From Pseudomonadota bacterium (GTDB lineage Bacteria; Bdellovibrionota_B; Oligoflexia; Silvanigrellales; Silvanigrellaceae): a DNA stretch of 64,000 nucleotides. Positions within the stretch are counted from its first letter, which is position 1. Each line of letters begins with the position of its first letter. Shown one piece after another: positions 39,522 through 39,992 of the stretch. Below the pieces are notes generated by a model. That model saw nothing but the letters and a program-made list of their open reading frames with translations, was not told where the DNA came from and did no database searches. A program made the position numbers and the translations under genes. The DNA is taken from NCBI GenBank assembly GCA_039799905.1, contig JBDLRP010000029.1:1-64000 (forward strand), written 5' to 3'.

Positions 39522-39992
39522 ATGCAATTTAAAGCGAACTTCGTTGCTGCATCGATATTTTCCACGATGCTCCTGTGCAACTCAGCATTGGCTCAGGACA
39601 CATCTGCAAAACCGGCGGAAACGGGCACATCTTCAGCCGCTCAAACCTCCGGCGACGGAAAAGTTGACCACGAGAAGGCAAAGCAAGAGCATGCCGCGAT
39701 GGCTGCAGAACACAGTCAGTGGCTGAAGGATCACGCCGAAGCGGCTGAAATCATCAAATACGCAAGAAAAGCGCTACAGGAACATCACAAAGAAATCCGC
39801 CAGCACGAGAGAATCATCAAAGCCCATGATCGTGAAATTGCCGCGCATGAACGCAAAGGTTCGAGCAGCGACCACGACAAGGCCAATACTGAACACGACA
39901 ATTTTGCAAAGAAGCACGCAGAGCAAAAGGCTCAGCATGAAGCTGTCATGGCTGCGCTCAGAGCGCTGAAAACAGCCCTCGAGAAGAAGTAA
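39522..39992 (+). CDS. Secreted His-heptad coiled-coil protein, candidate metal-binding or storage protein
   Basis: AAGGAG RBS, signal peptide ALA-QD, 13 His of which 12 are in i+7 series. Confidence 0.8.
   Translation: MQFKANFVAASIFSTMLLCNSALAQDTSAKPAETGTSSAAQTSGDGKVDHEKAKQEHAAMAAEHSQWLKDHAEAAEIIKYARKALQEHHKEIRQHERIIKAHDREIAAHERKGSSSDHDKANTEHDNFAKKHAEQKAQHEAVMAALRALKTALEKK

Follow-up and report, generated by a model that had tools for sequence, protein, structure and literature searches.

What does a small protein do in which nearly every histidine recurs at the seventh residue, and is its location next to a zinc-uptake operon of any functional significance? The initial annotation of the window, i.e., of the whole stretch of 64,000 nucleotides that was analysed, read it as a secreted protein whose three histidine runs form a helix bundle within one chain, with up to four stacked sites of three histidines each (His3), in analogy to the Cys-lined copper-storage proteins of the Csp type. 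Our own reading retains the His3 layers, but not the one-chain topology and not the storage function. With a probability of about 0.6, the protein is a periplasmic His3-layer swapped dimer, which would bind several divalent ions, most likely zinc, and would capture or buffer zinc when it is in short supply. Metal binding, the identity of the metal, Zur control, export, and the role of the family are all what we infer from the evidence discussed below.

A gene for a protein with three histidine runs

The reading frame is preceded by a GGAG ribosome-binding motif, while no convincing promoter or terminator was found at the gene. The 13 histidines of the encoded protein are found at positions 50, 57, 64 and 71, at 88, 89, 95, 102 and 109, and at 118, 125, 132 and 139. 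With the exception of the extra H89, they form three i+7 series of four histidines each (12 of 13), exactly as had been annotated. Residues 45-156 contain nine His i+7 pairs, a number that was reached by none of 200,000 composition-preserving shuffles; the maximum was eight pairs, seen once. Three four-His series are unique to this frame among the 15,804 stop-to-stop frames of at least 80 codons in the genome, and six other frames contain one such series. The sole cysteine is part of the likely signal peptide and the mature part is Cys-free. The features of the gene and of its surroundings are summarized in Table 1. Residues A24-Q25, at the end of the likely signal peptide, are invariant in four close homologues.

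Table 1. Coordinates of the His-heptad gene, its segments, and the divergent zinc-uptake operon within the window.
Feature	Position	Strand	Remarks
His-heptad protein gene, 156 aa	39522..39992	+	ORF, His pattern, homologues
Probable Sec signal peptide (residues 1-24) with A-L-A at 22-24, ahead of Q25	39522..39593	+	by eye: basic start, hydrophobic core
Variable S/T/A-rich linker, residues 25-49	39594..39668	+	by eye; unaligned in homologues; pLDDT 54-67, no helix
His run 1: H50, H57, H64, H71 at heptad a; A53/M60/W67 at d	39669..39734	+	preceding residue mostly E/D
Amphipathic helix between runs 1 and 2, residues 72-87; continues helix 1 without a break; core of the dimer in the model	39735..39782	+	spacing, G/P count, model
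His run 2: H88, H95, H102, H109 at heptad d; I92/I99/I106 at a	39783..39848	+	
Gly/Ser turn of the hairpin, residues 110-117; varies in length among family members	39849..39872	+	
His run 3: H118, H125, H132, H139; antiparallel to run 2	39873..39938	+	
C-terminal hydrophobic helix, residues 140-156; predicted packing on the partner's central helix	39939..39989	+	dimer-model contacts
Palindrome (7-2-7), probably a Zur site controlling the divergent operon	39326..39341	.	180 nt before the His gene
Divergent zinc-uptake operon	35008..39293	-	neighbour of the His gene, not a conserved partner
Lipoprotein-like gene, 211 aa	38658-39293	-	no Pfam match
371-aa gene, porin-like by eye	37536-38651	-	no Pfam match
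znuA	36567-37523	-	PF01297, E 3e-42
ABC ATPase gene	35876-36547	-	
Hydrophobic permease-like gene	35008-35865	-	no Pfam (ABC-3) or NCBIfam match

An unnamed protein family with a patchy distribution

The query protein has no match in Pfam, NCBIfam or PDB. Nevertheless, it belongs to an unnamed protein family, which is real and conserved. True homologues are present in three congeneric genomes. The 12 heptad histidines and G113 are invariant in seven full-length proteins of the secreted type, the query and six homologues that are 28-59% identical to it, and thereby the His periodicity that had been annotated for one protein is conserved in its relatives. Profiles matched 15 of 131 genomes in the own phylum, with the source genome counted, and 11 of 401 in another phylum, which was reached via the locus L015; the distribution is patchy. 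A three-sequence profile matched 36 clusters among 1.84 billion representatives, two of which are spurious and two fragments, and the family alignment contains 41 members. The counts given below for 40 members leave out the spurious P0027 (a tandem repeat) and P0030 (2 His), the fragments P0004 and P0012, and the truncated P0035. The ESM Atlas contains three similar clusters with 63-84 members each, which occur most often in Planctomycetota; at a feature score of 0.87, they are no more than a lead.

The members differ in the presence of a signal sequence and in the number of complete triads. According to a crude hydropathy test, 12 of 32 database members have a hydrophobic N-terminal stretch and on average 3.3 complete triads, compared to a mean of 2.1 for the 20 members without it. 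Four complete triads are kept by 13 of 40 members, and two or fewer are present in 16 of 40.

None of the Pfam metal-binding families, NCBIfam models or natural metalloproteins in the PDB was matched by the family. A Pfam scan of the 41 members yielded scattered coiled-coil matches, at most two of 41 per Pfam family, and a single match, to Striatin, above the cut-off. Foldseek retrieved generic hairpins only, with no structure at E <0.001, and a description of the family was not found in the literature searched, the coverage of which excludes most subscription papers. Homologue searches with a word index were nearly blind (0 of 98 and 0 of 274 candidates and, with a profile of seven sequences, one of 1,737). 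The first metagenome scan gave no match among 179, the second a single 1.8-kb contig without metal genes, and the plasmid search contained no family member. Further copies were found neither in 300 other genomes of the class of G476, the genome of an unrelated phylum discussed below, nor in 250 genomes of its taxonomic family. Several candidates were rejected: L015 and L016 turned out to be wrong-frame artefacts of the genome-contig scan, which left two true loci, and L005-L010 and L012 are repeats or chance matches that fall short of significance at E 1e-3.

Zinc-uptake genes and operator-like boxes

The divergent zinc-uptake operon of the initial annotation is real. Its gene at the permease position probably encodes a very divergent ZnuB. 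The genomes G001, G002 and G007 have retained the znu operon without a His-heptad gene in front of it, and the divergent linkage is thus found in none of three relatives, in contrast to the conserved znuABC linkage that had been considered. The two lead genes of the operon (37536-39293) keep their order in the same three genomes and are candidate outer-membrane parts of zinc uptake.

While the specific linkage is not conserved, zinc- or metal-uptake genes adjoin four of the seven full-length secreted copies. Apart from the copy in the window, one copy directly follows zrgA (L036), one is divergent from a DUF1826 gene and a NicO-family transporter gene (L039), and one follows a TonB receptor gene and has DUF1826 nearby (L041). 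DUF1826 has been drawn in Zur-regulated COG0523 clusters (PMC2770081). No recognised metal genes are near the other three copies (G007, G008, G092). In addition, a signal-less member with three layers is located between znuA and a COG0523 gene in G476 (L060). Taken together, a zinc role of the family is probable. A CobW-like gene that was seen by eye after the copy of G105 had no Pfam match in three scans and was not counted.

The search for operator-like boxes allowed spacers of 1-3 nt and up to three mismatches. A 7-2-7 palindrome precedes the znu operon in four of four genomes and is also found 40 nt before zrgA in the source genome, in which a 7-1-7 form is located before feoA and before the gene for a solute-binding protein. 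As called from the target genes alone, the former is likely a Zur site and the latter likely a Fur site. Compared to the Zur site of proteobacteria, the 7-2-7 form is different. Outside the window, the sites of these two forms in the source genome (G000) are those at C21:87382, C44:12523 and C46:93652.

Three unlinked copies of the His-heptad gene have Zur-type boxes. Those of G007 and G001 are preceded at 42-43 nt by 7-2-7 boxes with two mismatches, for which the background is 24 and 32 sites per 3.2 Mb, i.e., about one per 100 kb. A perfect palindrome is also present 64 nt upstream of the znuA-linked member of G476, and it matches the Zur site of Caulobacter znuL, as given in the source cited, in 14 of 19 bases (PMC4176598). 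The copy of G008 has no box, and the copy in the window has none of its own and lies 180 nt from the box that it shares with the operon. A plain alignment of the upstream regions revealed nothing. Perfect palindromes of other sequence are present upstream of two metal-linked copies (L043:1479-1496 in G090 and L041:3290-3309 in G105), and they are possible lineage-specific metal operators.

It might be argued that the same His3-layer dimer is a sponge for excess metal, be it Zn, Cu, Ni or Co, and that it serves storage or detoxification like SmbP, SilE or Csp. The high number of sites would suit such a task, and His3 sites alone do not select zinc. Regarding regulation, upstream sites allow activation by Zur in the system described in PMC4176598, and the box in the window, 180 nt upstream, could be of this type, but the boxes located 42-64 nt before the start codon fit repression. 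Regarding the neighbours, one copy lies by the NicO/RcnA-family transporter gene, whereas copies are co-oriented with genes on the uptake side, namely zrgA, the TonB receptor gene, and znuA-COG0523. Copper or silver efflux genes were found in none of the loci examined, with no sil or pco genes among the scanned neighbours, and the one HxxMxxxH motif in run 1, which resembles motif 2 of SilE, is set against the absence of conserved cysteines and the sparseness of methionine. Capture or buffering in zinc shortage is favoured over Csp-like storage because the family is linked to Zur-repressed uptake genes; the sponge, and with it the storage analogy of the initial annotation, is unlikely.

Signal-less members and a possible pH switch

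The neighbourhood is different for many members without a signal sequence. Non-metal genes adjoin 11 of 12 Pseudomonadota loci within 1.5 kb on each side, i.e., genes for PEP synthase (4), cyclopropane fatty-acid synthase (3), PPK2, and others. In the own phylum, four signal-less copies lie by a CHASE2 gene and three by the gene for a periplasmic binding protein. Some of the divergent signal-less members are directly beside the gene for cyclopropane fatty-acid synthase (L064, L066, L067) or PEP synthase (L062, L063, L068, L070).

Genes for cyclopropane fatty-acid synthase and PPK2 are often tied to acid or general stress, and many signal-less members are found beside them. The protein might thus be a metal-free pH switch or proton buffer, in which buried His networks hold the dimer together at neutral pH and open upon protonation. 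Parallels exist in designed pH-responsive bundles and in the ATPase inhibitor IF1, and the best PDB profile matches of the family are indeed the designed His-network proteins DpHF7 (E 1e-4) and pRO-2.3 as well as IF1, with weak matches also to the designed proteins GRa3D and alpha3D. Yet these matches are short and at the level of the heptad, without homology. Furthermore, the histidines occur in complete triads without a conserved partner layer of Ser, Thr or Asn, and the members richest in histidine track zinc genes and Zur-type sites. We regard a pH switch as improbable for the family as a whole; its validity may be restricted to the divergent branch without signal sequences. It may be that the family comprises two branches, one rich in His and linked to zinc, the other divergent and with a different role.

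Predicted fold and dimer

The heptad register is unbroken from residue 50 to 112. Histidines occupy position a, with A53, M60, W67 and A74 at d, and in the following part I78, L85, I92, I99 and I106 occupy a and histidines d. AlphaFold2, run with the single sequence, predicts two helices, 50-112 and 115-155 (mean pLDDT 83, pTM 0.58), and the pLDDT of the former is 82-97 over most of its length. The spacing between H71 and H88 is 17 in 39 of 40 members, the central segment is amphipathic and contains Gly or Pro at 11 of 637 residues across members, and indels in the family are confined to the turn at 110-117 or comprise whole heptads. Since runs 1 and 2 are on one unbroken helix, the monomer would be a hairpin, and the three-helix bundle within one chain that had been annotated is unlikely.

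An antiparallel dimer register, in which run 1 joins runs 2 and 3 of the partner, had been noted before the dimer was modelled. The modelling job used the 41-row alignment and two copies of the protein, with four Zn riding along. The homodimer model had a score of 0.81, compared to 0.00 for the best of three controls, with a run agreement of at least 92% and a pLDDT of 88. In the calibration, which included neither ligands nor the alignment used here, 20 of 30 homodimers of solved structure and one of 23 single chains reached this mark; these counts apply only roughly here, and coiled-coil models can score high from their likeness to designed bundles. All 12 heptad histidines are in the modelled interface, and the best contacts agree with the register noted beforehand. 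The pairs with the lowest error include H64-H95', M60-H132', E63-H132' and H139-W67', and the lowest-error contacts also connect M143, L146 and L149 with D70-I78 of the other chain. The prediction is, in summary, a hairpin monomer and a swapped antiparallel dimer. The stacked His3 sites of the initial annotation gain from the core heptad positions, from the co-variation of layers described below and from the interface histidines, but their number would be up to eight per dimer instead of four. This model of a stacked-His3 dimer is well supported, and its structural part is better supported than its physiological part.

Three runs in register would fit any arrangement that joins them, including a monomeric three-helix bundle or another oligomer like a trimer or a filament, and the modelling covered the two-copy state only. 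However, such topologies are very unlikely: helix 50-112 is predicted as one piece, runs 1 and 2 are joined without a break, Gly/Pro or indel, and the dimer passes strongly.

Histidine layers co-vary

The numbers of His heptads in the three runs rise and fall together, resulting in 3-3-3, 4-4-4 and 5-5-5 arrangements (Spearman 0.66, 0.65 and 0.86); these and the following statistics span related sequences and ignore ancestry, and p-values are overstated. When the presence of His was correlated layer by layer, the diagonal was the row maximum in five of five rows for run 2 versus run 3, and in four of five rows for run 1 versus runs 2 and 3; the deviating row is that of layer 3, which hardly varies. 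For layer 4 the table of His presence is 26/4/1/9. As far as can be judged from the sequences, this evolutionary gain and loss of histidines in layers of three supports the triads. Glu or Asp precedes the run-1 histidines in 28-36 of 40 members and could provide second-shell or fourth ligands. Position 60 is Trp in 25 and Met in 6 of 40 members.

Catalysis at His3-Zn-water sites, as in a simple hydrolase or carbonic anhydrase, would be in line with the ligand set described for alpha- and gamma-carbonic anhydrases (PMC11672702) and with the activity reported for this set in designed three-stranded coiled coils (PMC13262294), but it is hardly credible for layers that vary from three to five and are lost freely, unlike an active site, that lie stacked among hydrophobic layers, where a path for a substrate is not evident, and that would make a zinc-costly enzyme, poorly suited to a zinc-starvation regulon.

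Comparison with known metal-binding proteins

The closest similarity in design is to SmbP, which is also small, secreted and all-helical, with heptad-spaced histidines (the signal of our family was assigned by eye). SmbP is described as a periplasmic binder of divalent metals, Cu(II) and Ni(II) among them (PMC12955753). In five of nine SmbP members compared (PF16785), four runs of three i+7 histidines are present, i.e., 12 heptad histidines. SmbP has four short helices with three histidines each, whereas the His-heptad family has two long helices that carry three runs of four. The family also differs by the predicted swapped His3 dimer, a conserved Trp and acidic pattern, and the zinc-uptake contexts. 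Homology was not detected: hhalign gave a probability of 0.8% over 14 columns, none of the 41 members matched PF16785 at E 0.01 and the source genome had no match, while this model did identify 14 places in five of 251 other genomes, and cross-searches with the HMMs of both families reached at best 13 bits versus a cut-off of 29. Judged by sequence, SmbP is a design analogue, and the family would work like SmbP in principle, without being an SmbP and without detectable homology. The initial annotation recognised no described family with this layout, which is correct as far as homology to SmbP is concerned, but overlooked the closely similar design with four runs of three.

SilE and PcoE are secreted and carry i+7 histidines on helices as well, and one motif of the HxxMxxxH type occurs in run 1 of the family. 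Published work on SilE describes the binding of multiple metal ions, up to 8 Ag and 5 Zn, and short His/Met motifs with His pairs, in a protein that is disordered without metal and is encoded in sil/pco efflux clusters (PMC5008109). The family, in contrast, has runs of four, no general occurrence of Met, and conserved hydrophobic heptad layers. A search of the query for the SilE motifs MxxHx6HxxM and HxxMxxxHxxM found one partial HxxMxxxH only. The Csp proteins share with the family a helical bundle with a core that is lined by repeated metal ligands. Their cores are reported to be four-helix bundles with a thiolate lining, loaded with Cu(I) (PMC10155185), whereas the family has a hairpin model, a Cys-free mature protein, and His layers that alternate with hydrophobic layers.

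With regard to the task, the family is comparable to the Zur-regulon proteins ZrgA (PF10986), Zcp/DUF4198, AztD and ZinT, and it likely does the same job, the capture or buffering of zinc in the periplasm beside an ABC importer; one family copy directly follows zrgA. The family differs from all four in being an all-helical coiled coil with many predicted sites, and no sequence match to any of these families was found.

Proposed mechanism and implications

In the proposed mechanism, helix 1 (50-112) would be unbroken, helix 2 (115-155) would fold back on run 2, and run 1 of the partner chain would complete a three-helix segment at each end of the dimer. The putative His3 layers are H71'-H88-H139, H64'-H95-H132, H57'-H102-H125 and H50'-H109-H118. 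They would alternate with hydrophobic layers, four per end and eight per dimer, and conserved Glu/Asp beside the histidines, or water, may complete the metal sites. Bound zinc would be handed to the ZnuABC importer, or be released near it. A more far-reaching version can be put forward tentatively. It regards the family as a natural modular His3-zinc coiled coil, a swapped dimer for up to eight zinc ions, in which three to five layers are tuned by gain and loss of heptads, and which several Zur regulons would have recruited independently, to serve as a zinc capacitor in the periplasm or cytoplasm that may be discharged when the histidines are protonated.

Small proteins that hold several metal ions are already known, i.e., SmbP, SilE and Csp. 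With the proteins studied here, bacterial zinc handling would gain a family not yet described, and an architecture that is new. It has been proven for designed three-stranded coiled coils that one His per helix forms a metal site (PMC13262294). These bundles are artificial, and the metal designs compared here have one His3 site each, while the natural family would have three to five stacked layers per segment. A natural three-helix stack of His3 sites was not found in literature and structure searches, and the family, if the model is true, would be the natural counterpart of the de novo designed proteins. The model implies a dimer, up to four Zn per chain, and the triads named above, and the natural variants with three, four and five layers represent a built-in series. 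For protein designers, the family might offer a natural scaffold with multiple His3 sites and a candidate for a small affinity tag or for metal capture.

A few additional loci deserve mention. G001 has no intact copy and contains an internally deleted copy and a remnant broken by a stop codon (L004:1453-1815 and L011:1501-1737). Most of runs 2-3 are gone from the former, by a real deletion or an assembly error, and the remnant is found at the locus of the intact G007 gene. Other His-rich secreted proteins without a Pfam match are encoded upstream of family members in G092 (L040:2426-2896) and G105 (L041:3292-3834). Lastly, in L061:1087-1908 the family domain is fused behind the N-terminal region of DUF1451, a zinc-ribbon protein.
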